DNA of 64,000 nt from the NCBI GenBank assembly GCA_008690995.1, contig VRMN01000019.1:1-64000 (forward strand), read 5' to 3'. This document shows positions 6,532 to 54,783 of this stretch, piece by piece. The stretch comes from Porphyridium purpureum. Lineage: Eukaryota. The notes under the pieces were generated by a model, which saw nothing but the letters and a program-made list of their open reading frames with translations, was not told the origin of the DNA and did not search any database. The position numbers and the translations under genes are program-made. The stretch's first letter is position 1. Every line of letters starts with the position of its first letter.

Positions 6532-6936
6532 GTTCTGTGGTCTCCAGTAGTGTCCAGCGGCTTTTCGTAGTGTTCTGTGGTCTCCTGTAGTGTTCTGTGG
6601 TCTCCTGTAGTGTTCTGTGGTCTCCAGTAGTGTCCAGCGGCTTTTCGTAGTGTTCTGTGGTCTTCTGTAGTGTTCTGTGGTCTCCTGTAGTGTTCTGTGG
6701 TCTCCAGTAGTGTCCAGCGGCTTTTCGTAGTGTTCTGTGGTCTTCTGTAGTGTTCTGTGGTCTCCTGTAGTGTTCTGTGGTCTCCTGTAGTGTTCTGTGG
6801 TCTCCAGTAGTGTCCAGCGGCTTTTCGTAGTGTTCTGTGGTCTCCTATAGTGTTCTGTGGTCTTCGGTAGTGTCCAGCGGCTTTTCGTAGTGTTCTGTGG
6901 TCTCCTATAGTGTTCTGTGGTCTTCGGTAGTGTTCA
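6532..6936. repeat. 20-bp minisatellite, about 20 units, two unit types
   Basis: TAGTGTTCTGTGGTCTCCTG units interspersed with TAGTGTCCAGCGGCTTTTCG units. Confidence 0.95.
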
Positions 6937-8060: not shown

Positions 8061-10500
8061 CGTTCGATCATCAAAGGTGTTGTCATAGCCCGGCCGCCCA
8101 AAACGCAACCCACCTCTGTCGCTTGAGAATCGCGCAAGCGAGCAGTCGCTCGTAACGAGACGGCAGCAATGAAAACATCATCCATGGCACGCTTCGTGGC
8201 ATTCAATCACGCACTCCATTCTCACGCCAGCGCATGCATACTGCGCCCTCACGCAACACATCCATGCCCAAACCAGTGCCCGGCTTACCACTCAAAAGCA
8301 TCCCGCTCACATTCGCCAGCATCCTTGCCTTGACGCATTCGAGCATGTTGGTTAGGTTCAGCTCGCAAGTGCACAATGCACACAGCTGTTGAAACGGATC
8401 GCGCGCCTGTGCGCCGTCCTCGTGCCGCTCGTGTGAAGCACTGCCCAGTGCCTATCCAACATTCTCACGCACGCCGCGCCACTTCTGCCCGGCTACCACC
8501 GCCGCGCCACTCGCGCACTGCCGCCCGCCCGTGCCTGCACTTTACCGCGCCTGCGCTGAACAGCGCCGTGCTGCTGCGCTGCCGCGCCCACTGCGCCCGC
8601 CTGCGCTCAGCGCCTGCCTTCCACTGCGCCTGGCGCTCGCCCGCGCCCGCCCGCGCTCGACAACCATCCGGATCCAACCTTCTTCCCCTTCGCGTCGACC
8701 TCCCCTCCTTCGCCGCCGGCATGATCATAATTATAGCCTATCCTTCTATGCTTATTTAAATCATCAAACAGTGTCATTCTCATATAGTCCCGTGTCCTTC
8801 ACATGGGATGACGCTGCAATGCATTACAATTTGTGATGTCTATGCAATACAAATTACTTTGCTGAGGATGACATTGAAATGGGCACAAAGCCTCTAAATA
8901 CGTGCGTTTGAATAGTAAAATCAGCTCTAGTAAAGTAATTTTTTTTCATAGTAACCGAATTTCATTTAGCAAAACGCACCTGTTTTGCGGACGCGCTTAC
9001 ATTAACTTTAGGGTTCCGCAGCGTACCCCCACAACAGCGGCATTCCATAGTAAAGTAACCTTGTTTTATGATTTTAAGTCACGTTACCCTACCGTTCAAG
9101 GCTAAAATTTCTCGCTGCAGGTATTTTTCGCCTATATAACCCTAAACCCTACAGTAACACCGCCCCCACCGCGCCCCACCGCGCCCCACCGCGCCCCACC
9201 GCGCCCCACCGCCCGACTGCGCCCGCGCCCGCGCCCGCCCAACCTCGCCCCATCATTCGCGCCCCTCGTCTCTCGCCCCACGCCGGCGCCACTCTTCGCT
9301 CCCTCGCCGGCCGCACAACCCGCCAATCGCTCAATGCGCACGGCGTCCTCAGGTCGACTTGAGCCCGCACTTCATCATATTTCAATGCCAATTTTCTATG
9401 CTCATGCATACTAACAAAATGCTACTGTTTTACTATGCTTCTTCACAACCAACATGGGATGCCCATGTAATGCATGACCATCAATTATTTTGGGTTCGTT
9501 CTTCTATGCTCGATTTCTCATACTAACACACTGGCATTTACCTATGAAAAAGCCAACTTTGGACACCAACCTCCAAGTATTTTCATATGACAACGATATC
9601 TTTTTACTATACACATCGTAATTTTGGACTTTGGACGATCTGGTCTACTTGTTTTTACACATGTATAACCATGGATTAAAAGTGTTCCGGTCCGAGAGAC
9701 GCCCTGGGTGTACACCCGGAGGTACGGCGTCTCGGAATTGTTTGAGGTACAGGGGCTTTTTCGCCCGCGTGGTTTTTTACCCTGTACCTCTGGTTTTGTG
9801 TATTGTTGTCTTTCGCCCCGAGGAGCCGGAGTCGCGTGTCCGAGGGAAGCAGGAGCCGCTTGGCGGCCGGCCAGCACCCATTGAGCCGCTTGCTGACGTG
9901 GCTGGCTGTGGCTTCGTTCCGTGGAACGAACGGAGGAAAGCCCAGCCTTTTGGGAGAAATAATTTCTCCCTTCCGCGTCAAGGACAGCAAGGACGGCGGG
10001 GTATATAATGGGCGCGGGCCCCTGCGGTTCCCCGGATTTCTAGAGAGCGGAAGAAGTAGAGGCAAGGGAGAAGGACACAGAGAATAAAAGGAAGAGTTGT
10101 TCTTTGGTGTCGGGTGCCTGGGCGTGGTCGTCGGAAGGCGTGGGGCCTTTTGCTGAGCCTGTGTAGCAGAGCCAGCAGCACATCGTGTCTGGGGGGTTTC
10201 GGTGCTCTTAGAGCACTGAAGGCAGACGGCGGCTTTGTCCGTTACGACACCCTGCCCCTGTCGAGACCGGTGCTGTCTGTGCCGACGCGAAAGGCAATAG
10301 TAGAGGCCCTATACGCTGGATTTTCCACGCCCCGGGTATTCGTCGTCTGTGTTGTGTGCGTCGTGTGGTTGTGTTCTCTGTGCTGTGTGCGTCGTGTTGC
10401 TGGGGTTCGGTCATCTGAGAAGGGTTGTGTCATCCGGGTTCGTGCGCTTGTCATCATCAAGCGTGCGAGAATTTAAAGTGGTATCATCGCATCGGCGAAG

Positions 10501-11457
10501 ATGGATTCTGAGGGAATGGACGTGCAGGGCCTGCAGGGCGGCGCGTCGTGGATTGAAGCTTTCAACCAGCTTCATGCTCGTATCGGAGGACAAGAAATGA
10601 TGATTGTGCAGCTGCAGGAGGGAAACCGCCTCTTGCAGGAGATGCTGCAGAATGTGATGCATCAGGCATCTGTGTCAGCTGGTCCCGGCGAAACGGAAAG
10701 GACCGTTGCATCGCTGATTGGACGCAGCTTGAGGAAATACGACGGACAGCGCGACAAACTCGTTGTGAACGAGTGGTTGTCGAGGATGAAGCAAGACTTG
10801 GACATGTGCATGCCAGCTGGAGCGCTGGAGTCGCAGAAGGTGATCGTAGCGTCGCGCTTCTTTGAGAAGGATGCCGCGCTTCTGTGGGCAGCTCGCCCTG
10901 AGGAACAGAGGATGGCATTGGCCGAGTCCGGTTGGAATGCGTTCGCGAGCTTCGTGAGGACGGCATTTGAGCCGCCGCAGGCATACCTGACTGCTCGAAC
11001 GAACTTGTATCAGCTGAAGCAGGGCAAGATGACTGTTGCTGAGTTTGAGCAGCGCCTGAGGATGGTGGCTCTGTCCGTGGATAATGTGACAGATGCCGAG
11101 CTCAACACCATCTTCACTCTCGGCCTGAAGGAGAGGCTTCGCCTTGAGGTGGCGCGTCAGGACACGAAGACGCTGGAAGAGTCGCTGAGGGCGGCGTTGG
11201 CTGCGGAGCAGGTTGGTAGGTTTGGAGGAGACATGAGGGAGGCTTTTCATGGCGCCTCGAGTCCAGACTACCGGAACAGCTCGTCGTATGCCGGGACGGC
11301 GCCAATGGATTTGGGCGTCGTGGAGAAACGCCAGCCGGAGAAGCGCAAGCGTGCGGACATGGGCAAAGTCAGATGCTACCATTGTGGGCAGCGCGGCCAC
11401 ATCAAACCCAATTGCCCAAAGCGGAACGGGCACTTGGCGGGAGGCCCGGAAAACTAA
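10501..11457 (+). CDS. gag: Gag (retrotrans_gag/Ty3-type capsid, PMDLG motif, CCHC knuckle)
   Basis: LYQLKQGKMTVAEFEQRL, FTLGLK, APMDLG, CYHCGQRGHIKPNC. Confidence 0.92.
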   Translation: MDSEGMDVQGLQGGASWIEAFNQLHARIGGQEMMIVQLQEGNRLLQEMLQNVMHQASVSAGPGETERTVASLIGRSLRKYDGQRDKLVVNEWLSRMKQDLDMCMPAGALESQKVIVASRFFEKDAALLWAARPEEQRMALAESGWNAFASFVRTAFEPPQAYLTARTNLYQLKQGKMTVAEFEQRLRMVALSVDNVTDAELNTIFTLGLKERLRLEVARQDTKTLEESLRAALAAEQVGRFGGDMREAFHGASSPDYRNSSSYAGTAPMDLGVVEKRQPEKRKRADMGKVRCYHCGQRGHIKPNCPKRNGHLAGGPEN

Positions 11458-14400
11458 AACCTCGAGGGAGAAGTTGGGAGGTGCACTCGAGGGGAACGGA
11501 ACCTCCCGGGATGGGCTTTGTAGGTGAGGTCTGGCGCGCTGATGCGGCGTCGAGGTTGCTCTACAAGCGTGGAACTTTAGATGGCGAGTCTGTCCAATTT
11601 CTGGTGGACAGCGGAGCATCGCACAATTTTCTTGGATCTCGCTTTGTCGGCAGATTTGAAGGGCGCGAGAACGGAATGGTCAAGCTTGCGGGTGGGCAAA
11701 GTGTCTCAGTGCATGGCCCGGTGTCGCAGCATGTTGATCTTGGGTTCTGGAAAGGGCCGGTCAAGTTTTATGTCGGACCGCTGCAAATGGATGCAATCCT
11801 CGGGTGGGACTGGCTGAGTCGCGTGAACCCGAGGATTGATTGGCAGAGGGGTTCGATGGACTTGGAACTTAAAAATGTGGAAGATTGTGCGATGGTGAAT
11901 GTCGTGGACGCTCTTTCCGAGTCAAGCGGAAATCAAGCGTACGATGGAGAAGAGGAGAGTGCCAGTGAAGAGGTCGAAGGAAAGATGGCCGGGATGGAAC
12001 ATGCGTTGACTCACATGCCGATGCGGGATGATTGTGAGACGTGTGTTGTGGCCAAGATCAAGAGCCGACCAGCAAGAAGGCTGGAGAAGGACTTGTCCAC
12101 TTTGTCGTTCAATGACGAAGTTGGGATCGACCTGGTGGAGCCCGGACGTAACGTGGAAGCCATCGATGGAGCGAAGTACATACTGACGCACATCGATAGA
12201 GCGACGAGGTGGGCCACACTGGCAGGATTGAGAGCCAAAACGCATACGGCGGTTGCTGAAGCTTGGACAAGCGTGCAAGCCGGGCGAGGATGGCCAAAGG
12301 TACTGAGGACAGATGATGGAAACGAGTTCAGGGGAAATGTGAGCAATTTGGTACGGGAGAATCTCGTGAAGCATGAGATTGGCGTCCCACATAGACCGAA
12401 TAGCCACGCTGAACAGGAACGTTTCCATCATACTTTGAATCAGGGGGTACGAGCAAATCTCCTGCAGTCTGGGCTGGGAAAGCGGTGGTTTTTGCATGCC
12501 GCTCAGCATTTCGTCTTCATGTTCAATCGGCTGCACCCAGACAAGAGGTCTGGGAAGTCTCCGTATGAAATGAGGTACGGTGAGAGATGGAAGCGGGGGA
12601 AGGTAGCAGTACCATTTGGGTGCAAGGTGGTTTTCAAGAATGATCAACCTGAGAACAAGTATGCACCCAGAGGAAAGATTGGAGTCCTTGTTGGGGTTGC
12701 GGAGCATCCGCTGGCAATCTGGGTCCTTCCTCAGGAGGAGTGGACGAGTGCGGCACCGAAGCTGACTCGCACTCAGGACTTCAAGGCGTTCCCTGAAGTG
12801 TTTCCAATGCGGACTTTGGAAACAAGGGATGACGAGGAGGTCTCGGCACGTGAGGGTGAAATCGACTTTCACCCTAGGCAGGAAGAACCGGATAGTCAAG
12901 AGACTATGGTGTTGCCTACGAATACGGCCGAGGCGCGTGTATCCGGGAACTTGGAGGAGGACGTTCCCCTACCTATTGGAAGAAGGGGGAAACGAAAACC
13001 CAGTGTAGCTTGGAGCCGGGAAGAGGATCAGGCCATCATGGATGGCTTACGGCTCTTTGGCTGGGGGAAGTGGGAAAGAACTCTGCAAGAATACAAGGCA
13101 GTGTTCCGCAATTCAAGAAACGGAAAGGATGTGCGAGCCCGGGCCCATAATATGGGCCTCTCGGAGGAAAATTGGAAGCAACGCGCAGGAGTTGCTCCAG
13201 AAACACCGCAATTGAACTTGACAACTTTGTTGCAGACGAGCCAAGCTCTGGCTTCTTCGGCTGGAAGAGAAGCCATGCAAAAAGAAGTGGACTTGATGAT
13301 CCGATTCAAGGTATGGGATGAGCAACCTATTTCAAGGGAAGAAGCTCTCAAGGTCCCAGGCGCACGATTTGTGCGGACACACTTTATATTCGGATTGAAG
13401 TTCGCTGAGCTTCCGGAGGAGTTTCGCAAGGTCAAGTGTCGGCTTGTTGCTGGTGGAAATAGGATTTGGGATGCCTCAGGGAAGGTCACTCAGGATGTGT
13501 TTGACTATGAGGTGCCCGCGGGCCTGTCTGCAATCAGAATGCTGATAGCTTTGGCCGCGATCCTGGGATTGAAAATCGTGTCGTTCGATGTGACGTCGGC
13601 GTACTTACACGCTGACTTGTCAGGACCACCGACGTTTGCCATGTTGCCCCGTCACGTTCCAGGAGGAGGTGATGGACTTGTCGTTCGCTTAAGGAGGGCG
13701 CTTTATGGCTTGCCAAGAAGCGGGTCTGACTTTTCCATCGATGCCCGCAGAAGACTTCAGAAGTTCGGGTGGGATTTGATTCACGGCGAGAAGAATGTAT
13801 ACGTAAAAAAGATGGCGGGAAGTGCATCTGTTGCACTCTTGGCCTTGTATGTCGATGATGGCCTGCTCGCGTGTGCCGAGAAGGATCGGGGTGAGATATT
13901 TCGAGAGTTGAGGTCAGAGTTCCTCATTGAGAAGGAGCCAGAAGTCCTCTCGGAAGGTACCCCGTTGAGGTTCCTAGGTCTCACGATCTCGGAGTCGGCG
14001 GCACGGCTTTCGTTGGATCATGATCACTACCAAGCTTTGGTGGTGAAGGAATTCGAAGAAGAACTTGGGCAGGTGCTGCGAGCAGTGAAGTCACCAGGCG
14101 AGAAGATGAATGCTGACGCTGTATTGGATGTTCAAGTCGAACATGGGCATCTGAAAATACGCGAGCATTTTGGGAGGCTGCTGTGGTTGGCCAGGACGGT
14201 CAGACCGGATATCTCCTACGCAGTTGGAGTGGTGGCTCGGTATGTGGATAGCTGGAACGTCGCAGCTGAGAGACTCCTGGTTCGCGTCATGCAATACTTG
14301 AAGGTGCCTCGTGAGCCACTTGAGTATTTGCGGATGACGTCATTGAAGATCAGCGACGTAAGCGTCTTGGGTTATGCTGATGCCGACTTCGCTGGGTGTC

Positions 14401-14873
14401 CGGAAACGCGCAAGTCGACGTCTGGACGAGTGACGTACTTGGTCGCGGGTGGAAACAAGTATCTGGTCGATTGGAGCTCCAGAAGGCAACGCTTTGTGAG
14501 CTCTTCGACCTCTGAGTCGGAAATGGCCGCTCTGGAAGAGGCGGTGCAGTTATCCTTGTTTCCGGCATTGTCGTTTCTTCGAAGCGTGCAAGAGGGGGAT
14601 TATGCGTTGACCCTGCTTTGTGATAGTCAAGTTGTTCTCCGTGCGGTCGAGATGGGCTACTCGCCAAAGTTGCATCACATGGCAGTGACCAGAGCCACGG
14701 ACTTGGCGTGGATACACCAAGTTTGCGAGAAGCAAAAGCTGGTGAGATTGGAATATGTGAGGACGGGGGAAAACGTGTCCGACTTGATGACAAAACCTTT
14801 GTTTCCGGAAGGTCATATCAGGTGTTGGACTATGTTACGCGTCCCTCAGATCGGAAGGAGGAGCATGGATTAA
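11448..14873 (+). CDS. pol: Pol (PR-IN-Myb-RT-RNase H), in the -1 frame relative to gag
   Basis: PR: LVDSGASHNF...ILGWDWL. IN: HALTHMP..CETC, GIDLV/TDDGNEF/EQER. RT: KCRLVAGG, DVTSAYLHA, RALYGL, LYVDD. RH: YADADFAG, RKSTSG, SDLMTK. Uninterrupted. Confidence 0.93.
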   Translation, partial: GKLKPRGRSWEVHSRGTEPPGMGFVGEVWRADAASRLLYKRGTLDGESVQFLVDSGASHNFLGSRFVGRFEGRENGMVKLAGGQSVSVHGPVSQHVDLGFWKGPVKFYVGPLQMDAILGWDWLSRVNPRIDWQRGSMDLELKNVEDCAMVNVVDALSESSGNQAYDGEEESASEEVEGKMAGMEHALTHMPMRDDCETCVVAKIKSRPARRLEKDLSTLSFNDEVGIDLVEPGRNVEAIDGAKYILTHIDRATRWATLAGLRAKTHTAVAEAWTSVQAGRGWPKVLRTDDGNEFRGNVSNLVRENLVKHEIGVPHRPNSHAEQERFHHTLNQGVRANLLQSGLGKRWFLHAAQHFVFMFNRLHPDKRSGKSPYEMRYGERWKRGKVAVPFGCKVVFKNDQPENKYAPRGKIGVLVGVAEHPLAIWVLPQEEWTSAAPKLTRTQDFKAFPEVFPMRTLETRDDEEVSAREGEIDFHPRQEEPDSQETMVLPTNTAEARVSGNLEEDVPLPIGRRGKRKPSVAWSREEDQAIMDGLRLFGWGKWERTLQEYKAVFRNSRNGKDVRARAHNMGLSEENWKQRAGVAPETPQLNLTTLLQTSQALASSAGREAMQKEVDLMIRFKVWDEQPISREEALKVPGARFVRTHFIFGLKFAELPEEFRKVKCRLVAGGNRIWDASGKVTQDVFDYEVPAGLSAIRMLIALAAILGLKIVSFDVTSAYLHADLSGPPTFAMLPRHVPGGGDGLVVRLRRALYGLPRSGSDFSIDARRRLQKFGWDLIHGEKNVYVKKMAGSASVALLALYVDDGLLACAEKDRGEIFRELRSEFLIEKEPEVLSEGTPLRFLGLTISESAARLSLDHDHYQALVVKEFEEELGQVLRAVKSPGEKMNADAVLDVQVEHGHLKIREHFGRLLWLARTVRPDISYAVGVVARYVDSWNVAAERLLVRVMQYLKVPREPLEYLRMTSLKISDVSVLGYADADFAGCPETRKSTSGRVTYLVAGGNKYLVDWSSRRQRFVSSSTSESEMAALEEAVQLSLFPALSFLRSVQEGDYALTLLCDSQVVLRAVEMGYSPKLHHMAVTRATDLAWIHQVCEKQKLVRLEYVRTGENVSDLMTKPLFPEGHIRCWTMLRVPQIGRRSMD

Positions 14874-16625
14874 AAGTGTTCCGGTCCGAGAGACGCCCTG
14901 GGTGTACACCCGGAGGTACGGCGTCTCGGAATTGTTTGAGGTACAGGGGCTTTTTCGCCCGCGTGGTTTTTTACCCTGTACCTCTGGTTTTGTGCATTGT
15001 TGTCTTTCGCCCCGAGGAGCCGGAGTCGCGTGTCCGAGGGAAGCAGGAGCCGCTTGGCGGCCGGCCAGCACCCATTGAGCCGCTTGCTGACGTGGCTGGC
15101 TGTGGCTTCGTTCCGTGGAACGAACGGAGGAAAGCCCAGCCTTTTGGGAGAAATAATTTCTCCCTTCCGCGTCAAGGACAGCAAGGACGGCGGGGTATAT
15201 AATGGGCGCGGGCCCGTGCGGTTCCCCGGATTTCTAGAGAGCGGAAGAAGTAGAGGCAAGGGAGAAGGACACAGAGAATAAAAGGAAGAGTTGTTCTTTG
15301 GTGTCGGGTGCCTGGGCGTGGTCGTCGGAAGGCGTGGGGCCTTTTGCTGAGCCTGTGTAGCAGAGCCAGCAGCACATCGTGTCTGGGGGGTTTCGGTGCT
15401 CTTAGAGCACTGAAGGCAGACGGCGGCTTTGTCCGTTACGACACCCTGCCCCTGTCGAGACCGGTGCTGTCTGTGCCGACGCGAAAGGCAATAGTAGAGG
15501 CCCTATACGCTGGATTTTCCACGCCCCGGGTATTCGTCGTCTGTGTTGTGTGCGTCGTGTGGTTGTGTTCTCTGTGCTGTGTGCGTCGTGTTGCTGGGGT
15601 TCGGTCATCTGAGAAGGGTTGTGTCATCCGGGTTCGTGCGCTTGTCATCATCAAGCGTGCGAGAATTTAAAGATAACCATGTACTATAGTCCAACGCAAC
15701 TGTACTGTAGCCCGAAGCAACTGTACTATGGTATGGCCGAACCGCAGGGCCCACCCTACCTGAAAAACGCCTCTAACCCCACCGCGCCCCACCGCGCCCC
15801 ACCGCGCCCCACCGCGCCGACTGCGCCTGCGCCCGCGCCCGCCCAACCTCGCCCCATCATTCGCGCCCCTCGTCTCTCGCCCCACGCCGGCGCCACTCTT
15901 CGCTCCCTCGCCGGCCGCACAACCCGCCAATCGCTCAATGCGCACGGCGTCCTCAGGTCGACTTGAGCCCGCACTTCATCATATTTCAATGCCAATTTTC
16001 TATGCTCATGCATACTAACAAAATGCTACTGTTTTACTATGCTTCTTCACAACCAACATGGGATGCCCATGTAATGCATGACCATCAATTATTTTGGGTT
16101 CGTTCTTCTATGCTCGATTTCTCATACTAACACACTGGCATTTACCTATGAAAAAGCCAACTTTGGACACCAACCTCCAAGTATTTTCATATGACAACGA
16201 TATCTTTTTACTATACACATCGTAATTTTGGACTTTGGACGATCTGGTCTACTTGTTTTTACACATGTATAACCATGTACTATAGTCCAACGCAACTGTA
16301 CTGTAGCCCGAAGCAACTGTACTATGGTATGGCCGAACCGCAGGGCCCACCCTACCTGAAAAACGCCTCTAACCCTAGAGTTCACTTTAAACTTCCTCAT
16401 TACAGTCTCACTTTGTTACAAATCTCGCGCAAACGGTCGTTCCCTCAGACAAGCGCGCCAGCTTCCGCTACCATTACATTTAGCATGCATTGCAAAAGCA
16501 TGCGGCATTTCCGAGCTTATTTGATAGAGTACGTGAGATGTACACCTACATTTTAAAGGTACAGTCACACGGCGAGGAACCCTGGGGCGGGTGAGCCCAA
16601 AATCCACCACTAACCCTAGAGTCCT

Positions 16626-19600
16626 GTGGTTGGCGCCCTTCAAAGCATTTTGAACTGTGCACTTGAGCAACCTACAACATCCACCGGAAACACACGGCCA
16701 GCTGCACGCGAATTTTTGCGCTCGCACGCGCTCCAGCAAGTGAGTGACCGAAACGGAGAGCCATCAAGTATCCACGACGAAATGTCTGGATCGCAGTCCG
16801 GCACGTGTTTGACCAGTCGCAGTGCCTTAACGATAAGTGAGTTGTCAGCCACGCAGCTCTGGGTTTTGAGAGCTGCGTGGGTTGTGAGGCTAATTGTGAA
16901 AGAGAAAGACCGGGAAATACAAACCTCAAACGACACGATTCTTTCCGACGTTCCCTGTGCGCAAGTACTGTACATGATGCACTCCGTCTTCAGAAGCGCG
17001 CAAGAGCCATCCACGTACGTGGCATGGAAAGCTATGGGCAATGGTTCCTGGATGCACTTAAAGACGGAAGTGCTGGTGCAAGCAAAGGTCTTTGGTAATT
17101 TGTACAATGGCTCCAGAGCGGCCGCTCGAGCTTTGGTTGCCCGAGTTCTTGGAGCGCGCGATAACTTTTCGGTCCGGGTGTTGTCGCAGCATAATACAAC
17201 GGCGCCAATGCTCGGTGAAATTATACTCGATGGCAGTGAACGACATGCAGCTCAGCCTGCGGAACTGCTCGCGAGCGCCAGACGCCAGAACATCGATTTC
17301 AACGCACTGAGCAATTTTGCATTACTTGCGTTCTCTGCCGCGTGTGCCCCGCCGCGAAAGTCAAGTATGGAAACTTTTGTTCTCGCTAGCCGAAGTGTTG
17401 GAAATTCACTTAGACCTGTTTTAAATACTCGTGTAGTGAGAGTTGTCGAGGTTGTTGAGAAGAAATTGGGTCGCGCGCTTGCAACTGAAACTGTTGAGCA
17501 TCTTCCAACTGAGGAAGTCGCAGAAGTGCTGCTTATCATGCATTGGATTGCGAGTGCATATATTGACGAGATACTTGGCCAGCAAAATCAGGGGCAAAAT
17601 GTACCTGAGAGCATTGACTTTCGAAACTTTGGGGCCTGCGCCAGCAGAACGACTTGTGCAGCACTTAATCCGGAGGAGTGGATTGCACAAGTAGAATGTG
17701 CTGTTGGGCAGTTCTGCGCCGTACCCATGACCTTACGGGACTTGCGCAATCTTTACTTGCATTGCGTACGAGACAACGCTGACGCTTTCCGAGGAATTGC
17801 CGCCCCGCAAGGGATACAGCCCGTAGACACACCTGCGCAAAAGTACAAGATCCGCGGCGCAGGTCACTCGCTTGCGACAGACGCCGCATTCTACCTGGCT
17901 TCAGTAAAAGACGAAGACTGGTTTGCATTCACAGTGGAATGTCGCGACGCATGGCTTGCACTGATTGGCGCGGAAACTCACGCTTCGTCACGGATGGGCT
18001 CCGTGCATCCGAGAGAGCGTTCGCTCGGAGAATGGGCCTCACTGGCGGGTTTGACGCCAGACACATTGCTCCGTGATGTATATGGTAGCGCTTCCGTCGC
18101 CAGCCCGCAAGCAAGGAAGCAGCTTGAAATGCTGAACGAAATTCTGATGGACAAGAACGTTTGCGTACAGTATCCTTGCGGAAGTGGTAAGTCAGCATCA
18201 TACTTGTGCATGGAGAAAGTCGTTCGCTTGCAAGGTGCCTTTGTTCTGCTTTTGGTACCGCTTCGCGTTTCCATGTTTGCTGCATTGCAGGAGGCAAGAA
18301 GTAGAAGGATTGAAGCCGTTGACTTGTACTCATGTACCGAGCGTTCGCATGGCGGCCTCGTCGTCACCAGCATGGATGCACTTGCATCACAACGTGCAGC
18401 TCTTAGACGCATTGCAGAACGCATCGCACTCGTTGTCGTGGACGAGAGTCACGTCGTACTAGAACATAGCTCGTTCCGCGAGTCAATGTCCGTCAAGCTG
18501 AGCGCGTCGCTTTTGACGAAATCCTGCTTTGTATTTCTCAGTGCGACGATAAGTGAAGATGCTGCTGCGTTCGTTGCCAAAGAGTTTGGTGTGACCATCG
18601 ACTCCTTTTTGCGTGCACGACCACTTCGAGAATCATTGAACATCAGCGTGACAGAGTTTGGCACGAGCGCAATCTGCACTCAACAGATTACGGCCGCCAT
18701 CCAGGAAAATGCGCTTGCTCGTCGTGGGCGTGCACTGATAATGTGTGCTACTCATGCAGAAGCCGACACATGGTTTGACGAAATGAGAAAGTCTTACTCA
18801 GATGCATGTTACAAACTGACAGCACGTGAAGCTCTCGACGCTGAGGCATTGCAGCAAGCGCGGGTAATCGTTGGCACATCCGCTGTGAGCTCATCGCTGA
18901 ATTGCAAATCTGTTTTGTACTGCGCCGTGATGCGCGGAGCACATTCACTCAGCCAAGTGGTCCAAGCATGGGGCAGAGTTGGTCGCGACGGTGAGCACGC
19001 CCGCTGCGAATTTTTCTTCGACAGAAATTTCCAGAACGCATTGGACCAGCGTGACAGCCCGAGCATTCGCCAGGTTCCAGGTTTTGAGCGCGACCCTTGG
19101 CATAGTAAAGCCGGTCTACGGCGCTTCGTTGAGAGTGCACTTGACTTATCCTCTCACGAAGTTCACAGCGTGCTCAACCTTTTAACCACTCGCTCCATGG
19201 TGACTCAGACAGCCAACCCAGTGACGGTGCCGCAGCCAAGCTTGCACGAGATGGTGCGGCCAAGTACGCACGTGGTTGCAGAACCAAGTTCGGGCATGAT
19301 AGCGCAACCGACGTCGTACATGCTGGCCCAGCCAAGCTCGCACACGGTCGCAGCGCCAAGCTCGCACGTGATGGCGCAGCCCACTTCGCACGTGCCGGAG
19401 CAACCAACTTTGCACTTGCTCGCGCAGGCCAGCTCGCAGCAGCACGAGGCGACGCCACTGGCTAGCTCTGCACCAGCGCGCGCGCTGGGCGAGCAATTAC
19501 AGACGATCAGACAAGCAAGAGCGACATGGAATACTGCAATGTACAAATGCATCTGGTGCAGTGGTGTCACATGTCTTGGCACATGCCAGAATCCGAACAG

Positions 19601-35953: not shown

Positions 35954-37587
35954 CGTGGAAGAATCAAGGTCGTCCTGTCACTCCCCAAGCTGTACTTAAT
36001 ATCGGTTCGGGGTACAGCGAAAGGAGGCATGTTTTCGAAACCACTCCGGGCGGCCATTAGCCGTTTCGGCCGCACTTCGAATACGTGCCGGGTTCGAACG
36101 CCAACACCGTCCGAAACCCGCACGCGAGCAGAAGTCCGAGGCTCGGGAGAAGGTACTTAAGCCGGACCGAGCAGGCAGCTCTGTGGGATGTAGCGTAGAG
36201 TTTTAGTTAGAGGCTCTGACACATAGGCGTATGGTAAAAGGTGCTTTACTAGTAGCACTGGACCCTCTCAGTCTTCTTGGGCGTTTGGTGGTGAAAACGC
36301 TGTTGGCTGCGCTCGATCTCATATTCCCTTCTAGGGTTATGAGCCCAGACCTAGTGTCTGCGACGGCGGTGATCATTGCGGGAATTGCGATCCGAGCGAG
36401 CACGCTGAGCAGCCCGGAAACAGCTTGAACATCGAAGGCCGGAATTGCGAGAGGAAATGGAGCACCAGGAAGGTGGAATGGAACACTCGCACGCGAATGG
36501 CCGCGGAATGGAAGACGGACCTTCCGCAGAGGAGCATTTCATTCAGCAGATGCGGGCGGAAATGGAGGCCCAGCTGCATGCCACGCTAGCTGCAGAACGA
36601 GCGCGGATCGAACAGGAGTTCGCGCATCGGCTAGGCCAGCTGGAGCAACAGTATGCTCGGAGCGTGAGCGTCAATGCGGTGGCACCAGGAGCATCGGACA
36701 GCCCTCGCGCAGCCAGCCGCGCCGTGCGAGTCGCCAAGATGATGCCTTATGAAGGGCGACGCGACGTGCCGACAATACTCGTCTGGCAGAATGCGGCGCG
36801 TACTCGAGTATACAACCCTCTCACGCAGGAGGTTGCGGTTGCGAGACGCGCTTGGACCAGCGCAGATGAAAGGCACGCTATAGAGGTGGCGTCTACCTAC
36901 CTGGCTGGTAACGCGATGCTTTGGTGGATAAGCTTAGAGGTGAGGCCGGTGCAGTTCGACGAATTCCTCGGCGCAGTGCATTCCAACTTCGCACCAGCAA
37001 ACGCAGCGAAGCAAGCGCGTGACGAGCTTGCTGCGTGCGTGCAAGGCACGCGCGACGTGCGCGAATACGAGACGGCATTTTCGCAGATCTGTCTGCGCAT
37101 CGCCGGGCTCTCAGAGGAAGAGAAGCTCGACCGTTTCTTGCGCGGGCTGAGCAAGCGCGTCCGAGTCTTCGTGGAAATGTCGGAACCGTCCACCTTCAAT
37201 GGAGCTGTAGAAAAGGCCACGAACGTGGACGAGGTGCTGAATCGTGACGGGCGCCAGCAAGCGTACCGTGCCCCGGCGACGAGCCAGAGCGGGCCTGCCC
37301 CCATGGAGCTCGGGTCGGCGGAGTGGGCGGAGGAACAGCCTGTAACTGAACGCCGTCCCAGCCGTGCGGCAGGCAAAGGCCGCGGGCGCCAAATGAGAAA
37401 GCATGGTCGCGGAAAGGGTGGAGGCAAACGCGCTACGCGCGGCGAGCAAGACAAGACTGCCAGCAAGGAGAGCGGCGGCCCGCGATGCTACCGGTGCAAG
37501 CGTCGAGGCCACATTGCCCGTGAGTGCCGAAACTCCACGGCCGCCTACGTCACGGTGGATGTTATCCGTTCGACCCCAGTCACCTAG
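35954..37587 (+). mobile_element. 3'-truncated LTR retrotransposon C: 381-bp 5' LTR (35954-36334), half-tRNA-iMet PBS, gag only
   Basis: The LTR is defined by an inverted near-identical copy at 62481-62861. GGTTATGAGCCCAG at 36335-36348 immediately follows the LTR. Confidence 0.85.
36457..37587 (+). CDS. gag: Gag (Ty3-type capsid, PMELG, CCHC knuckle); C-terminus probably runs into unrelated sequence
   Basis: STYLAGNAMLWW, ARDELAACVQG, EEKLDRFLRGL, PAPMELG, CYRCKRRGHIAREC. Homologous to the gag at 49917. Confidence 0.88.
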   Translation: MEHQEGGMEHSHANGRGMEDGPSAEEHFIQQMRAEMEAQLHATLAAERARIEQEFAHRLGQLEQQYARSVSVNAVAPGASDSPRAASRAVRVAKMMPYEGRRDVPTILVWQNAARTRVYNPLTQEVAVARRAWTSADERHAIEVASTYLAGNAMLWWISLEVRPVQFDEFLGAVHSNFAPANAAKQARDELAACVQGTRDVREYETAFSQICLRIAGLSEEEKLDRFLRGLSKRVRVFVEMSEPSTFNGAVEKATNVDEVLNRDGRQQAYRAPATSQSGPAPMELGSAEWAEEQPVTERRPSRAAGKGRGRQMRKHGRGKGGGKRATRGEQDKTASKESGGPRCYRCKRRGHIARECRNSTAAYVTVDVIRSTPVT

Positions 37588-47635: not shown

Positions 47636-49916
47636 GCTTGTCATCCACAAGGGCTTCGGTAGATTCCAGCAGCTACGCCGGCTAATCCGCAACGAGACAG
47701 CGCGCACGTGCGCGGTCTGTTACTTCAAAGTAAGGAGCCATGGGCGCAGTAGCGGGCCTCATGTTGCGACCATGTGCGCCGATTGTACCAATCAAGCTGA
47801 TCTTTCTGCCGTCGGAAATCTGAACCGCAGCCGGCAAAGGCTGATGCCTTTCGAATTTTCTCGTCCACGCCCTCTGCAAGAATGGGCGCAGTGCTCAAAT
47901 CAAGGCGATGGAAAGCATCCAGATCTAAAGGAAAGCACTCACAGTGGTCGACAGAAAAGTCAACAAGTTTTCTCGCCCGCTTACATGTGTACTCCATGAG
48001 CACATCGGGCTCAACAATGTGCTCATTTAACAGCACGAACATGACTTGGTGTCAGAGTCGTCGCTGACATTAACACCCGGATCGCTTTCTTGAGGTGACC
48101 CGACACATTCTCATTTTCGCGGGACGCGCAAAGCGGTCAGAGTTTGAGCAGGAGCGTACGGGATCTACTGTCTTGTACCGCAAAACAGCAATCAAGCTCG
48201 ACTTACCTCTCGGCATCCTCCGCCTGCAGAATCGTGCTTCTTCGCCTAACATGCATGTCTCAAAGTCGGCGGCTCGAGCAAGATCAGCGAAAGAATCTTC
48301 TAACAGGTGCTTCGGAAGAAAAAAAAGCGTTGATGAACGCACGCTGCGATTCAGCGTCATCTCCAAAAGCCCCACTCGAAAATTAGCCATGGATCGCTTG
48401 CTTACGGCCGCAGAAAAATTGCTTGCTCCGGGTGTACCGAGAATGGGCGACACATCTGCCACAATGTAAAATGCCACTTCGGATGCAGCATAGCACAACT
48501 ACCAAAGCTGCGCGTTGACTCAAGGTTCTGAAGATGACCGCGTGGGATGCCATCTGGCGCACATTTAGACCGACTGTGGGGTCAAGGTGACTTTAAAGTC
48601 GGCAGCATGTCCAACCCATACACAGATGCTGTAAAGTGATGCTTGACATGCGTGTTGCACATCAATTTCAAGCAAGCGAAAAGTGACGTCAATAACAACC
48701 GGGTGTCAGCCTTGATGTATGATAGCGAGTGTGAGCATCATATGACCGCACACCACAGAAGTCAACCACGTTCGCGTTTTTCCACATCTAACTCGCCGCC
48801 CTTGAAACCATGGCGTGTCGTGTCTGACGGGCGAGCTCGGTGCACAGTCGAACAAGAACGGGGAGCTAAACACAATGGGTAAGGTTGCGAGACTCGGGCA
48901 TAATTCCTGAACCCGTATGAGCGGGCATGCGTCAAGCACTTCCTCCATAAATCGAGCGTATCCTTGTTCCTTGTGAAGATACGAGCAGCAAAATGCCGCT
49001 GGTGTCGTCTTGTACAGAGCCTCCGCCTGCCAGCCTTCTTCCTTTCCCGAGCGCTCGGCCGTGACGCTTGAAATGATAGTGTCCTTCGATACCCAGGGTA
49101 CGGATTTCCAGGACAGACGTCCGCGTCCACAAGCGGCACAACAAGCGCTTCATTCTGTCGATGCGCCACGCCGCGCAGCACTGACGCCGCGATCATTCGA
49201 GGTGCCGCTGGATGTCTTCACGCTTGCGATTTAATATGATTTGCTCGTCCAGCTGCACACGTCCCAGTGACGGTCGCCGGGCCACACCCCGTCCAGCGCG
49301 CGAGCTGCGTGACGGTTGTTCGCTGCACGACACGGGACTGCACGCAACAAGGCAAATTCGCTGATTACATGGACGTGCTTTTGCATTGCCCTAATGGCGG
49401 TTGGATTCATCCGTCGTTTGCCGGACGAAACTACATTTCGAAGTCGCGGCACCCGACAACGGTACATGAGCAACTCATCACTGTCTATCTCACGTTGTAA
49501 CTCCTGACTTTTCTCCTTACTGCCTGTAAAACCCATAAATCAAAGACACAGCTTGTATTTCACGATGTTTATAACCTTCGGAGGTTTCAATTCTTGTCAG
49601 TAAAGGGACGGTTTAGCGTAACGGCTAGGATCCGTTTGCTGTAACGGTTAGTGACCGTTCTAAGCAAGACTTTGGCGCCCACCTCGGTATGGTGCGGCAG
49701 CTTTCGGTGACCGTTGCAGACGACATTGGTCCGTGCGTGTCCTGCCGGAGTGCGGGTATAAATTGCAGTCGCGGACGAAGTTTTCGGGTCCAAGACGCAG
49801 CAGTCAAGCAAAAAAGGACTATCATCCTTCAGTGCAAGCAAGACGAGAGTAAAGTTGCGTTATACTTGAAGCTAACACTTCTACAGTGGTATCATCGCTT
49901 TGGGTTTCGATAGAGG

Positions 49917-50735
49917 ATGGAGGCACTTTCGCGTGCAATGGCGAGGCCGGGGCCCGCTGACTTGGTGCAGGTGTCGCGCCTTGACGTTTATGATGGGGCG
50001 CGTGACGCGCTGGCCATTAAAACGTGGTTGTTCAGTGCGCGCGAGGTTATCTACATTCCGCTGCGCGATGCGGCGGTGGCCGCGGTGGCAGCTGCTCGGG
50101 CGGCGCCTGGAACCGCTGGGCCTGGACGCACAGCAGACGAACTTCGTCGCGACGCCGAGTTAAAGGCGATCAGGGCGGCCGCGACGTACTTCCGCGGTCC
50201 GGCCCTGGTGTGGTGGATGGCAACAACAACCCAAGGATCCTCGCCTGGGACGTGGGATGAATTCTCTGCGACGATTGAGGCAACGTTTACGCCACCACAT
50301 GCAGCGCGCGCCGCACGTGATGTGCTTGCAACCCTGAGGCAGTCACGTTCCGTGGAGGAATACGTGAACGAATTCGCGCGTGTTACGCTGATGATTCCTC
50401 GTTTGACAGAGGAGGAAAGGCTTGACCGTTTTGTCCGCGGGCTGAAACCGAAAATCAAGGTTGAAGTCCTGAAAGCGGACGTTGCTTCGGTAACGCATGC
50501 AGCCCGGGTTGCATCGGCAGCAGAGTCTGCATATGGAGGCTCGCTCTCCCTCTACGGGAGCTCTGCAGGACACGATGGGCCTGCACCAATGGACCTGGGG
50601 GCGGTCAGCGCGGGTGCGCTTCCGTCGCGCCGTCGCCGGAAAAAGAATAGGGACGGCTGTTGGAATTGCGGGAAGGAGGATCACGTGCGAGCAACGTGCC
50701 CTGATTTAAAAGGTTTGGCCCCCAGCCGGGCCTAG
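49917..50735 (+). CDS. gag: Gag (Ty3-type capsid, PMDLG, CCHC knuckle)
   Basis: TYFRGPALVWW, LATLRQSRSVEEYVNEF, DRFVRGLKP, PAPMDLG, CWNCGKEDHVRATC. Confidence 0.92.
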   Translation: MEALSRAMARPGPADLVQVSRLDVYDGARDALAIKTWLFSAREVIYIPLRDAAVAAVAAARAAPGTAGPGRTADELRRDAELKAIRAAATYFRGPALVWWMATTTQGSSPGTWDEFSATIEATFTPPHAARAARDVLATLRQSRSVEEYVNEFARVTLMIPRLTEEERLDRFVRGLKPKIKVEVLKADVASVTHAARVASAAESAYGGSLSLYGSSAGHDGPAPMDLGAVSAGALPSRRRRKKNRDGCWNCGKEDHVRATCPDLKGLAPSRA

Positions 50736-53700
50736 GCGGCCTGGGCATGGGGGCGCCGGATCCTGTACCGGAAGCAGTGACGATCCGGCAAGTGGTGCCG
50801 TTGTTCACGAAACCATGTTTTGAAGACGTGACTGTGAATGGCACGAAGGTACCCGCCATGCTGGACAACGGAGCTACCGCATGTTTTGCCAGGCGCAGTT
50901 TTGTTGAAAGAATCCCCGGTTGCGTGGTCGAGTCTGTGCCAGACGTTGTCGCCAGCGCGAGAGTGGCGAATGGGCACACGCTGGACGTTATAGGGGTTGC
51001 GCAAGTCGTCGTTGACTCGCCGCATATACCCGTCCTTAAGGCAGCCAAGGCAAGCTGTGTAGCGCGGCTAATCGTCGTACGTGAGCTTTCGTACGACCTA
51101 ATCCTTGGAATTCCATGGTTTACGGTCGTTAGTCCACTTTGGGCAGAATGGGCGCGGATAGCTGCGGTGTCGTGCGGCGAAGAGCATTACTTAGCGCACC
51201 GGCCAAAAGATTCTGGCTGCGGCGCGTGCGCGCTCGGAAAAATGCGCCGCCGTCCAGCCAGGCGCACGGGCGAGCAGGCGGGTGTTCGAGACGCGCTCGA
51301 TGTGGACCTCATTGACGCGGGCCGGGACGATGGGGGTGTTGGACGCGGGGGCGAGCGTTACGCTCTGGTTGGTGCGGACAGGCGGGATGGTTGGCTTTTC
51401 GTAGAGCCAGTAGAGGATAAGACTGCCGCCTCTTGCGCGAAGGCCATGGACGTTGCTCTTGCTGGCACACATTGGCCACGAGTTGTCAAGTCCGACGGCG
51501 GCAAAGAGTTTCGCGGCGTTTTTGAAGATCTCGTGAGGCTGAAAGGTTCGCTTTCCGAGTTTGGTCTTCCGAATAGGCCGAATTCCCATGCTCTAATCGA
51601 GTCCAGAAACCGGGATGTCGTAGAGCCCACAAAAGCGGCGCTGGTAGAAGCAGGGCTCCCGGCGCGCTTTTGGCCCGATGCCATAAAGCATCAAACGTTT
51701 GTGTATAACAGGCACAGTTCCTGTCATCCCGGGCGGGAGACGCCGTACGAGAAAAGGTACGGAACCGCGTATGCACAAGACAAGTTGGCTCCGTTTGGCT
51801 GTGCGGTCTTGTTTTTGAGTGACGAGACGGGAAAGTTTGAAGCAAGGGCGAAGCTTGGCGTTCTGCTAAGATTTCATGGCGAAGTTGGCTTTGTCGTAGC
51901 CCCTGTGGATGACTTGGCGAACGGTGTTGTACGCGAGATTGCCACGCGCGACGTGGAATTTCGGAGGACGGAGTTTCCCGCACGTCGACTGGGGCTCAGA
52001 CCGCTTGGGGAGCGATTGTGGCTTGATGATGACGTCGACCGGGTTCCCGAAGACGCAGAGGAGTGCATTCGATGCAGAAAAACTCGAATTGCAGTCGTCC
52101 TTTGTTACAAGTGCCTGGGCAAGCGCGCGAAAAGGCATCGGCGGGACGGTACGTGCACTATCGGAGCATGTAAGTGCACCGTCGAAGACCTGCTGGAATA
52201 TAGCAGACGTGAGGCGCGCCATAAAAACGCTCGAGACGAGCGGGAGAGCGCAAGAGCCGAGAAGGACCGCGTTCGCGAAGAACGAGCTTCGGAGGCGATG
52301 CGCAAGCGTGCGCAGAATGCGGCAGACCAAGCTGCGAGAGAACTGGTTCTGCGGGCGAAGAGTGCTCGGGCACTCGCCAAGAAGCGCAGAAGGGAGGAAA
52401 CTGTGGCGGCGCGCGACGCGCAGGGTGCCAAGCCAGACGCCACATTCTCTGGCGTGCGAACGCGTGCGGGTCGAGCAACGAAAGCTCCCCGGCGCTTCGA
52501 GCTAAACGTGACGGAGGTCGTGCCGCGGAGCGTGGCAGTGAAGAATGAAGCATTCACTCGTGCACGCAATGACGAGCTGGAAAAGCTTGCTCGGTTCAAC
52601 GCCTGGGATTCCTCACCCGTGCAGTGGACGGCTGCTCGTACGGTTCCAAGAGCAATCTTCGTGCGTGGGCACTTCATTTACACGCTGAAGCACAAAGAGA
52701 GAGGCGCGGAGGCGCAAAGGTACAAAGTCCGTTTTGTTGCGGCTGGGAATAATTTAAAGTCGCATGATGGCGAGCGGGCTGAGCAGCCTGTGCCTTACGC
52801 AGCGCCAAGCAGCTTGGCCGCGCTTCGGTTAGTACTCGCCTGGGCCGCGGCTTGCAATCACGCCGTGATGGGCATGGACATGACGTCGGCCTACCTTCAG
52901 TCGGACTTGCGCGGTGATCCGGTGTTTATTTGTCTACCCGAGGAGGCGCCCGGGGCGCGCAAGGGAGTTTACAGGCTGCGAAAGGCACTGTATGGTCTCC
53001 CGCGCGCCGGCGCGGATTTTGTGCACGAGACAGCCGACAAATTGCGAAAGGCCGGCTGGACGGAACGCGTGGCCTCGGTCTTCTGGCGCGATGGAGTGTA
53101 TATTGTTGCCTATGTCGACGACTTCCTCATCGTTGGGCCGCAGGCTAAAATTCTACAGGTGAAGGAGGAGCTTCGAAAAATGTTCGTGTTCGATTCCCCC
53201 TGCCTGCTATCGGACGCGCAGCAGATTAGGTTTCTCGGAATCACCGTGCGGCGAGTTGGCGACCAGATCGAACTGGATCATACAGACTACGCGAGGCATC
53301 TCATTAAGTCGTATGCGTGGAGGTTGCAGAACATTGTGGGGGCGCCCAGGACGCCAGATGTGGCTGTCGAAGCGGAAGATTTCGAGAACGGCGCTCCGGA
53401 TGCTCCGCGCTCGGAGCTTGGCGCACTTCTTTGGTTAGCCCGAACCACGAGGCCAGATTTGGCACGGGCCGTCGCACGAGTAGCACGTTTAGTTGATAGG
53501 TGGAGCTTGGGAGGCGAGCGCCTGCTGAAGCGCATCTTTGAATACTTGCGCGCGAACCCGGTTTCGACTATTGTGTTTAAGATTCAGCAGCTCGCGCAGG
53601 ATGAGCTCTTCGCGCTGACCTCATTTGCAGACTCTGATTTTTCGGGCGACTGCAGCGGCGCCGCGAAGTCAACTTCGGGGATGGCGATGTTCCTATCGGC

Positions 53701-54103
53701 GGGGACCGAGCGCTATTTGGTCGACTGGGGCTCGCGGTTGCAGAGGTCAGTGGCTACCTCGTCCGCGGAAGCAGAAATAGTCGCGCTCGAAGCCGCCACC
53801 AAGGTCCTTCTGCTGAACGCGGACGTTATGGGTCATCCCGAAGCATCTCTGCATTTGGTTTCTGATAGCCAGGCAGCGATTCGAGCCGTTGAAAAGGGAT
53901 TTTCGGCAAAACTTGGGCATGCGAGGAGAACGCAGCGCATATCCATCGCGTGGCTGCATGAGCTAGCCGAGAAACGGGTGCTGAATTTGTCCTGGATAAG
54001 CGGCAAGGACAATCCCGCCGACCTGTTTACAAAACAGTTTTCAAAGTTCAAGTTTGAGAGGAAGCTTTCACTCCTTGGTATCGAACCGCAGCGAAGAGGT
54101 TGA
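50705..54103 (+). CDS. pol: Pol (PR-IN-Cys/His cluster-RT-RNase H), in the -1 frame relative to gag
   Basis: MLDNGAT..DLILGIPWF; HYLAHRP..CGAC; DVDLID/SDGGKEF/LIES; KVRFVAAG, KALYGL, AYVDD; FADSDF, ADLFTK. Confidence 0.93.
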   Translation, partial: FKRFGPQPGLGGLGMGAPDPVPEAVTIRQVVPLFTKPCFEDVTVNGTKVPAMLDNGATACFARRSFVERIPGCVVESVPDVVASARVANGHTLDVIGVAQVVVDSPHIPVLKAAKASCVARLIVVRELSYDLILGIPWFTVVSPLWAEWARIAAVSCGEEHYLAHRPKDSGCGACALGKMRRRPARRTGEQAGVRDALDVDLIDAGRDDGGVGRGGERYALVGADRRDGWLFVEPVEDKTAASCAKAMDVALAGTHWPRVVKSDGGKEFRGVFEDLVRLKGSLSEFGLPNRPNSHALIESRNRDVVEPTKAALVEAGLPARFWPDAIKHQTFVYNRHSSCHPGRETPYEKRYGTAYAQDKLAPFGCAVLFLSDETGKFEARAKLGVLLRFHGEVGFVVAPVDDLANGVVREIATRDVEFRRTEFPARRLGLRPLGERLWLDDDVDRVPEDAEECIRCRKTRIAVVLCYKCLGKRAKRHRRDGTCTIGACKCTVEDLLEYSRREARHKNARDERESARAEKDRVREERASEAMRKRAQNAADQAARELVLRAKSARALAKKRRREETVAARDAQGAKPDATFSGVRTRAGRATKAPRRFELNVTEVVPRSVAVKNEAFTRARNDELEKLARFNAWDSSPVQWTAARTVPRAIFVRGHFIYTLKHKERGAEAQRYKVRFVAAGNNLKSHDGERAEQPVPYAAPSSLAALRLVLAWAAACNHAVMGMDMTSAYLQSDLRGDPVFICLPEEAPGARKGVYRLRKALYGLPRAGADFVHETADKLRKAGWTERVASVFWRDGVYIVAYVDDFLIVGPQAKILQVKEELRKMFVFDSPCLLSDAQQIRFLGITVRRVGDQIELDHTDYARHLIKSYAWRLQNIVGAPRTPDVAVEAEDFENGAPDAPRSELGALLWLARTTRPDLARAVARVARLVDRWSLGGERLLKRIFEYLRANPVSTIVFKIQQLAQDELFALTSFADSDFSGDCSGAAKSTSGMAMFLSAGTERYLVDWGSRLQRSVATSSAEAEIVALEAATKVLLLNADVMGHPEASLHLVSDSQAAIRAVEKGFSAKLGHARRTQRISIAWLHELAEKRVLNLSWISGKDNPADLFTKQFSKFKFERKLSLLGIEPQRRG

Positions 54104-54783
54104 GGTCGGTGAGCAAAAATTTGCTTAGAAGGGGGCGCAGTAAAGGGACGGTTTAGCGTAACGGCTAGGATCCGTTTGCTGTAACGGTTAGTGACCGTTC
54201 TAAGCAAGACTTTGGCGCCCACCTCGGTACGGTGCGGCAGCTTTCGGTGACCGTTGCAGACGACGTTGGTCCGTGCGTGTCCTGCCGGAGTGCGGGTATA
54301 AATTGCAGTCGCGGACGAAGTTTTCGGGTCCAAGACGCAGCAGTCAAGTAGAAAGGAGTATCATCCTTCAGTGCAAGCAAGACAAGAGTAAAGTTGCGTT
54401 ATACTTGAAGCTAACACTTCTACAGCTTGTGCAAGAAGTTTTGTGACGCACATCATCGACCGCTTGGTTGTGTGCTGAGTTCGTGATTTTGACAAGGGTT
54501 TAGTTGTTTCCATATCGTAGAATCCAGATGCTTGTTCTTTGCCAACTCGATCTGTTTCTCTTTATTGTGACTCCCCTTAAGGGGAAAGAGGACTAAAAGA
54601 GCGAAAAAGAGAAGATTTCTGTCACGAGGCGCTCTTATATAGGCAAGTGCATACGCGTAGCGAACGGAATGAGCCGTACAAGGCTGACCTACAGTCTAAA
54701 CAGTGAGCCGTATTTCAGAAGTGGTGCATCCTGATTGAGCGTATACCCAGCACCCATGGCTGTTGGTTTCTCAGTCGGGTAAC

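Follow-up and report, generated by a model that had tools for sequence, protein, structure and literature searches.

A Ty3/Gypsy-type Gag and protease joined to Copia-type integrase, reverse transcriptase and RNase H in LTR retrotransposons of Porphyridium purpureum

The window analyzed here is a stretch of 64,000 nucleotides from Porphyridium purpureum (GenBank assembly GCA_008690995.1, contig VRMN01000019.1, positions 1 to 64,000 of the forward strand). It carries two intact long terminal repeat (LTR) retrotransposons, A (9670-15672) and B (49598-54425), whose gag and pol open reading frames (ORFs) are both open, and in which a Gag and protease (PR) of Ty3/Gypsy type are joined to an integrase (IN), reverse transcriptase (RT) and RNase H (RH) of Copia type. 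A third locus, C, holds a gag of the same type. The LTR pairs of the window start at 9670/14864, 49598/54138 and 54784/59374, the last pair bounding element D, discussed below. The features of A, B and C are as follows.

9665..9669, +: A, left target-site duplication ATAAC, repeated at 15673-15677
9670..10478, +: A, 5' LTR, 809 bp, ends 5'-CA...AG-3', edges confirmed by contig junctions from other runs
10479..10490, +: A, primer-binding site (PBS) TGGTATCATCGC, 12 nt identical in B
10501..11457, +: A, gag, 318 aa, Ty3/Gypsy-type capsid and one CCHC knuckle (PF03732, E 1.4e-10; PF19259, E 3.3e-7)
11448..11454, +: A, candidate -1 slippery heptamer G GAA AAC, abutting the gag stop
11550..11870, +: A, aspartic protease, DSGA...ILG type (PF13650, E 4e-7; PF13975, E 6e-7; PF08284, E 1.4e-5)
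12000..12810, +: A, integrase: DDE core, short finger of the form H-x3-H-x6-C-x2-C, C-terminal region of Copia type (rve, E 3e-5; SH3_retrovirus, E 0.006)
13008..13154, +: A, Myb-like domain at the integrase C-terminus (PF00249, E 1.9e-6, over the curated cut-off)
13365..14057, +: A, reverse transcriptase, Copia type (PF07727 RVT_2, E 2.9e-16; no RVT_1 match)
14340..14873, +: A, RNase H, Copia type (25-34% identity to canonical Copia RNase H regions)
14853..14863, +: A, polypurine tract, immediately 5' of the CA of the 3' LTR
14864..15672, +: A, 3' LTR
49593-49597 and 54426-54430: B, target duplication CTTGT
49598..49886, +: B, 5' LTR, 289 bp, ends 5'-CA...AG-3', single insertion
49887..49898, +: B, primer-binding site TGGTATCATCGC
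49917..50735, +: B, gag, 272 aa, Ty3/Gypsy type (PF03732, E 2.2e-16; PF19259, E 4.9e-11)
50705..50754, +: B, candidate signal for frameshifting, heptamer T TTA AAA and, after it, a stem of 15 bp
50705..54103, +: B, pol, 1132 aa (PR 50810-51145, IN 51185-52000, RT 52670-53317, RH 53585-54100)
52058-52177, +: B, Cys/His domain plus long helix, in pol
54138..54425, +: B, 3' LTR, purine tract just upstream
36457..37587, +: C, stand-alone Ty3/Gypsy-type gag (PF03732, E 2e-15)

In both A and B gag is a separate ORF with pol offset to the -1 frame, and pol runs PR-IN-RT-RH, with Pfam matches to Asp_protease_2/gag-asp_proteas, rve and RVT_2 in succession. A preliminary description of this DNA had proposed the same composition from motifs, all of which were verified in the sequence: KxRxVAxG, ALYGL, YVDD, ADxDF and DLxTK for the Copia RT/RH, L.Q..SV.EY..F, F..GL, PMDLG and CCHC for Gag, and LVDSGASHNF...ILGWDWL..NPRIDW and DLILGIPWF for the protease. 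The domain-wise Pfam search that it had recommended returned Gypsy-type Gag and PR and Copia-type IN and RT. The nearest database proteins to A and B are named Porphyridium purpureum, at 96-99% identity. A was inserted in one unit of a tandem duplication of about 600 bp, and the neighboring unit is the empty site, with a single ATAAC at 16269-16273. The pol stop codon of A falls 10 nt within the 3' LTR. No tRNA gene that could name the priming tRNA of A occurs in the window; we take the PBS of A and B to resemble initiator methionine tRNA.

The Gags of A, B and C match Retrotrans_gag, Ty3_capsid and zf-CCHC in Pfam. The PF03732 cut-off was passed by all five Gags tested (A, B, C and the database proteins P0072 and P0073), none of which matched the Copia Gag family PF14223, a family that the control P0004 does match. 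A profile built from the Gags of A, B and C extended over the capsid of dArc1 (E 2e-4) and of Ty3 (E 5e-4), these matches lying between 2e-4 and 6e-4, as against only the zinc knuckle of Drosophila Copia Gag (E 0.53). Top Foldseek matches were the Ty3 capsid, Arc and PEG10, none of them below E 0.001, and the ESM neighbors of Gag were Retrotrans_gag, Ty3_capsid and PNMA clusters (0.92-0.97); with the fused gene model as ESM query only RVT_2 clusters came up, at 0.89 or less. The Gag of C is 23-35% identical to those of A and B and, as described earlier, of the same type. Membership of C in the lineage is not supported, as C consists of gag only, and neither a pol ORF nor an LTR pair was found for it. 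Downstream of C lies a degenerate Gag in the reverse orientation (37836-38264; tblastn E 8e-13), and a segment of 390 bp upstream of C has an inverted copy, 97.7% identical, beside a poly-T run (62473-62862).

The protease of A and B has the ILG motif and matches the retroviral-type families PF13650, PF13975 and PF08284, and its profile found ASPRV1 and DDI1 as best matches in the Protein Data Bank (PDB). LLS is described as a marker of Copia proteases, and ILG is found in none of the 31 Copia table rows examined, 25 of which have LLS and six of which have lost the motif (PMC2774666). Neither an LLS-type protease nor a match to Pol_BBD (PF22936), a family matched in four of six database Copia control proteins, was found in A or B.

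IN, RT and RNase H are, on the other hand, Copia-type (RVT_2, SH3_retrovirus), the SH3_retrovirus matches of the integrase being weak. RVT_2 scores were 60-74 bits, compared with 122-205 in five of the six canonical controls and 57 in the sixth, and RVT_1 was not matched by either pol at E 0.1. The RNase H of A gave no match to a Pfam RNase H family. The Gypsy integrase families (H2C2, Tf2 SH3) and the chromodomain were not detected in A or B, and the hybrid integrases score higher against Copia integrases than against one Gypsy integrase and group with Copia integrases at 88/94. The order PR-IN-RT-RH, the grouping of the RT with Copia RT-RH and the type of IN thus place A and B with Copia, and the capsid family and ILG protease are those of Gypsy, of which the RVT_1-type RT and the position of IN after RH are absent.

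Relatives were taken from a profile search of 1.84 billion proteins, of which the best 150 were listed. The RT-RH tree has 151 rows, which are database proteins without clade names; eight were dropped as too short, D and E (a second Copia element of the window) among them. Of the 151 rows, 61 group together in a branch distinct from canonical Copia, which has as its hallmark a short integrase finger, H-x3-H-x5-9-C-x2-C, and was matched to no named Copia clade; the midpoint root falls between this branch and canonical Copia. In a hand-chosen subset of 40 rows the short-finger branch received 100/99, and nested in it is a 15-row hybrid clade at 98/96. The hybrid clade holds eight P. purpureum families (A, P0002/3, B, P0014, P0015, P0072, P0073 and P0075), with Gypsy-type Gag demonstrated in four of the eight and Gypsy-type protease in five; the remaining records start at IN. 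P0072 and P0073, each a further family, have Gag, PR and RVT_2 joined in one record. The other seven rows of the clade, among them one from MMETSP and one from Logan, lack the N-terminal part. P0147, which has no RT, has a Gypsy-type protease joined to the short finger and a Cys/His tail. With eight families, and only 31% identity between the pol of A and that of B, the lineage is diversified, as previously stated.

In the rows around this clade the Gypsy-type module was not found. Profiles of the hybrid Gag and PR matched none of the 32 other short-finger rows (best 3 bits), and PF03732 and PF19259 matched none of the 16 of these 32 with at least 400 aa before the finger. An LLS-type protease was found in the short-finger rows P0076, P0084 and P0088, of which P0076 and P0088 share the Cys/His tail of B; P0120 and P0131 gave weak, sub-cut-off matches to PF13650. 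Some proteins of the short-finger Copia branch (P0076-P0205) carry additional modules: P0114, P0120 and P0131 have CCCH fingers N-terminal to the protease, P0111 a CW finger behind IN and P0084 an AAA_28 domain behind RNase H.

Because the relatives around the hybrid clade are without the Gypsy-type module, replacement of gag-PR is the best reading: an ancestor on this little-known Copia branch probably exchanged its gag-protease block for a Gypsy one. The inter-superfamily recombinant proposed in the preliminary description stands as to mosaic make-up; as to origin it is the best reading and unproven, the tree in which the hybrids are sister to all other Copia not being rejected.

Several results weigh against such an exchange. 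Placing the hybrids as sister to all other Copia was not rejected by the approximately unbiased (AU) test, neither on RT, with a long-branch non-LTR outgroup (p-AU 0.358), nor on IN, with one Gypsy outgroup (p-AU 0.203). The non-LTR RT outgroup places the root near the hybrids, a rooting that is unreliable given its long branch, and the hybrid integrases are not monophyletic on the tree built from IN. Since ILG is the general state of clan AA, shared with retroviruses and host proteases (PMC2642776), the protease alone cannot name the donor, and on the structural models the capsid C-terminal fold appears common to all groups, so that fold alone would not discriminate (a fold shared by all groups is also described in PMC6525542). 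No Gypsy donor of Gag and PR was found, and no relative outside P. purpureum was demonstrated with this Gag. A Gag-alignment search among longer proteins gave a P. purpureum record only, which is weak evidence, and no relatives came from viral contigs scanned with alignments of Gag, pol and PR or from a scan of one metagenome.

Some of these results lend weight to ancestral retention, by which an early Copia offshoot would have inherited its Gag and ILG protease unchanged in type from the ancestor that Copia shares with Gypsy, with no swap. The root could fall on the branch that sets off the hybrid clade, the ILG state is general among such proteases, and the capsid fold is common to all groups. 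We nevertheless consider retention unlikely. The midpoint root separates the short-finger branch from canonical Copia; a tree rooted on Gypsy IN puts the hybrids among Copia integrases, the constrained tree being 15 log-likelihood units worse; and the short finger and Cys/His tail are common to the relatives with LLS protease and not to canonical Copia, so that retention would need extra losses.

It is quite improbable that the hybrids belong to an already catalogued Copia clade (in Repbase, for example, or as CoPorcru1/2 or PyRE-type red-algal elements) whose Gag type went unremarked. GalEa-like elements have been reported from Porphyridium (PMC3587641), and at NCBI the proteins are annotated as 'Copia protein' and one Gag as 'PEG10'. 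The DTGC protease, HX4HX30CX2C finger and LLS motif of GalEa are however all absent from A and B. The better fit to GalEa is that of D and E, which are placed far from A and B in the trees. In the literature covered, which did not extend to Repbase, GyDB, REXdb and most subscription papers, no such lineage was found: no Copia elements with Gypsy-type gag-PR, no CA...AG ends and no Myb-tailed LTR integrase are described. D (54784-59680) and E (20967-25241) are Copia elements with one ORF each and with motifs like those of GalEa. The two 307-bp LTRs of D are identical, with TG...CA ends, and its duplication is GTAAC, yet it has an in-frame stop at 58534-58536; its IN-RT linker is much shorter than that of E, and no TGG-type PBS follows its 5' LTR.

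That Gag is instead a fast-evolving Copia Gag, its Gypsy likeness arising from bias of the Pfam models and a common fold, is very unlikely. Structure does not discriminate: the Gag capsid model (mean predicted local distance difference test score, pLDDT, 57.5) aligned with PEG10 at Z 13.2 (root-mean-square deviation 2.3, 84 residues aligned), Copia at 11.3 (1.8, 83), Ty1 at 10.2 (2.3, 82) and Ty3 at 9.2, and matches to Gypsy-type capsids of solved structure reach only moderate E-values (2e-4 to 1e-2). Against this stand the uniform family matches of the five Gags and the matching control P0004, the fact that D and E, Copia elements of the same window, matched neither PF03732 nor PF19259, and the switch of protease type at the same branch.

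An assembly chimera or a nested Gypsy-in-Copia insertion, an idea that the repeat-rich window, with its nested repeats, might invite, has next to no likelihood, each element being bounded by one LTR pair and one target duplication with PR and IN in a single ORF, and a chimera being refuted by contigs from four public runs that span the gag/pol junction of A with no gaps and by many independent gene models built alike.

Family A comprises 17 gene models in the databases, and the region from capsid through RNase H is present in 12 of the 15 listed, across 11 scaffolds. The two LTRs of A, 809 bp each, differ at two positions. Those of B (289 and 288 bp) have seven differences and are 97.6% identical, from which it follows that B is older than A. 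Recent activity, as previously claimed for the lineage, is upheld by near-identical LTRs, the 17 gene models and independent insertion junctions, and we regard A and B both as young elements present in many copies. All three indels listed among the A contigs fall in LTRs. From the substitutions in these contigs (40 shown, 79 further not shown) 35 were scored, two in LTRs and three adjacent ones being excluded, and 23 were synonymous and 12 nonsynonymous, a pattern consistent with selection acting on gag and pol alike. In RNA-Seq run X19 the contigs span A and hardly its flanks, which is not in itself proof of transcription.

Both elements have the ends 5'-CA...AG-3' between 5-bp duplications, ATAAC for A and CTTGT for B, and in both a purine tract immediately precedes the CA of the 3' LTR. 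Seven of the 14 loose-end contig rows for A lie at an LTR edge. CA is retained in all three left junctions (9670, 9667 and 14862), and right junctions were found at 10478 (in two runs, which share one flank), at 10479 and at 15672. TG...CA is described as a conserved integrase signal to which Zam is an exception (PMC3601003), and one Gypsy consensus with CT...AA ends has been reported (PMC3587641); A and B depart from the TG...CA rule, to which the control D conforms. A TG start for A, with a target duplication of 7 or 9 bp, was considered since the target also reads CATG after ATAAC, and was rejected, as the 3' LTR likewise begins CATG and the other left junctions keep CA. The ends of B are known from one insertion only. 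The integrase would join ends finishing in AG-3' and TG-3', without the usual CA. As the left end of A (CA|TG) and the right end of B (CA|G) look like untrimmed canonical ends, our guess is that 3' processing has been lost.

The arrangement of gag and pol suggests, from the sequence, -1 ribosomal frameshifting. The pol frame of B opens precisely at T TTA AAA, 30 nt upstream of the gag stop, and the fold after this heptamer has z -1.41 (45 nt) or z -2.57 (85 nt). In A the heptamer G GAA AAC is one of four loose candidates in the gag/pol overlap, and its downstream fold is no better than shuffles; the lack of a significant frameshift-stimulating fold there argues against this mode of expression. 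P0072 is a single 1530-aa record with three copies, which may be a true single ORF or a product of gene modeling.

The integrase tails differ between families. The best PDB match of the Myb-like domain of A was TRF1 (E 1e-3), followed by B-Myb (4e-3). The tail domain of B has seven invariant Cys and one His, and its predicted fold is of low confidence (pLDDT about 50). P0003, at 65% identity, has neither domain; Myb matches were found in P0075, P0096 and P0097 and a Myb-like motif in P0072 and P0073, of which P0073 carries both tail modules. Among family-A gene models the Myb region (12990-13180), at about 94% identity in the majority, varies more than IN and RT do (97-100%). Myb domains steer site choice in R2/R4 non-LTR elements (PMC7998251). 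By inference only, insertion of A and B may be targeted through the tail, and we predict that a tail of either type anchors the integrase on DNA or chromatin. That the Myb domain might direct insertion to telomeres was considered, TRF1 being the best PDB match and A lying among AACCCTA motifs, and was not supported further, since B-Myb scores nearly equally and family A occurs on 11 scaffolds.

In the life cycle that we propose, RNA from the 5' LTR would yield Gag and, where ribosomes slip into the -1 frame near the gag stop, Gag-Pol; a particle of Gypsy type would be matured by the protease of that type, and inside it the Copia RT would copy the RNA from a tRNA primer. A crossover between PR and IN would leave capsid, frameshift site and protease as one co-adapted block. 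We put forward tentatively, as somewhat less than an even prospect, the fuller picture of an undescribed, active group born of a cross between the two oldest LTR superfamilies, with an integrase free of the near-universal CA-end rule (AG and TG 3' ends, perhaps untrimmed) and with sites picked via interchangeable tails that include a captured Myb.

Other features lie elsewhere in the window. A non-LTR RT (RVT_1), presumably CRE-like, with a second similar ORF without RT occupies 1032-6127, and a tandem array with 10/20/80-bp periodicity lies at 6444-6983. A 1120-aa DEAD/Helicase_C ORF (16620-19982) is one that we take to be RecQ-like and telomere-linked. The sequence AACCCTAG recurs at 3861, 4551, 6257, 16371 and 16612, and on the minus strand at 36331 and 39496, and the region with these repeats may be subtelomere-like. 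Convergent ORFs at 27209-30427 (+) and 32151-34949 (-) encode paralogous membrane proteins with a GHSLGG lipase-like motif, their DNA being 72% alike over 451 bp, and two adjacent ORFs with a DPG motif (60335-61782) resemble a split TnpB/Fanzor-type nuclease.

Copia and Gypsy are usually treated as separate lines that differ in particle, protease and enzymes. The success of a lineage in which the particle is that of Gypsy and the enzymes are those of Copia would imply that gag-protease and IN-RT-RH are exchangeable blocks, hidden by classification on RT only; were it a basal relic instead, it would bear directly on the look of the common ancestor. The CA...AG ends offer a natural test of LTR-end recognition by integrases, and finders based on TG...CA would likely miss such elements. 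The host being a small culturable alga, frameshifting, end processing and Myb-directed targeting are testable.

With Ty1/Copia (Pseudoviridae) A and B share the order PR-IN-RT-RH, the RVT_2 RT, the Copia RNase H and IN C-terminal region, the 5-bp duplication, the tRNA-type PBS and the polypurine tract. They differ in having a PF03732/PF19259 and not a PF14223 Gag, ILG and not LLS/Pol_BBD, the short IN finger, CA...AG ends and the -1 offset; Ty1 uses a +1 gag/pol frameshift. With Ty3/Gypsy (Metaviridae; Ty3 and the PEG10/Arc capsids) they share the capsid family, the single CCHC knuckle, an ILG protease near ASPRV1/DDI1 and a separate gag with -1 pol, and differ in the RVT_2 RT, in IN ahead of RT and in that no H2C2, Tf2 SH3 or chromodomain was detected. 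Gmr1-clade Gypsy elements likewise have an ILG protease and IN directly after PR, but with a Gypsy RT and GPY/F integrase, a rearrangement within Gypsy, whereas the enzymes of A and B are themselves Copia (PMC2774666). The GalEa/CoPorcru/PyRE10G Copia elements of aquatic species and red algae resemble A and B in host group, Copia order, CCHC Gag and Met-type PBS, and differ in their DTGC/LLS protease, HX4HX30CX2C finger and TG...CA ends, against DSGA/DNGA and H-x3-H-x6-C-x2-C in A and B (PMC3587641). The diatom CoDi-A Copia elements share a captured module at the integrase C-terminus; in CoDi-A it is a chromodomain, in elements described as having no CCHC and ILG lost or LLS (PMC2774666), and in A and B a Myb or Cys/His domain takes its place.

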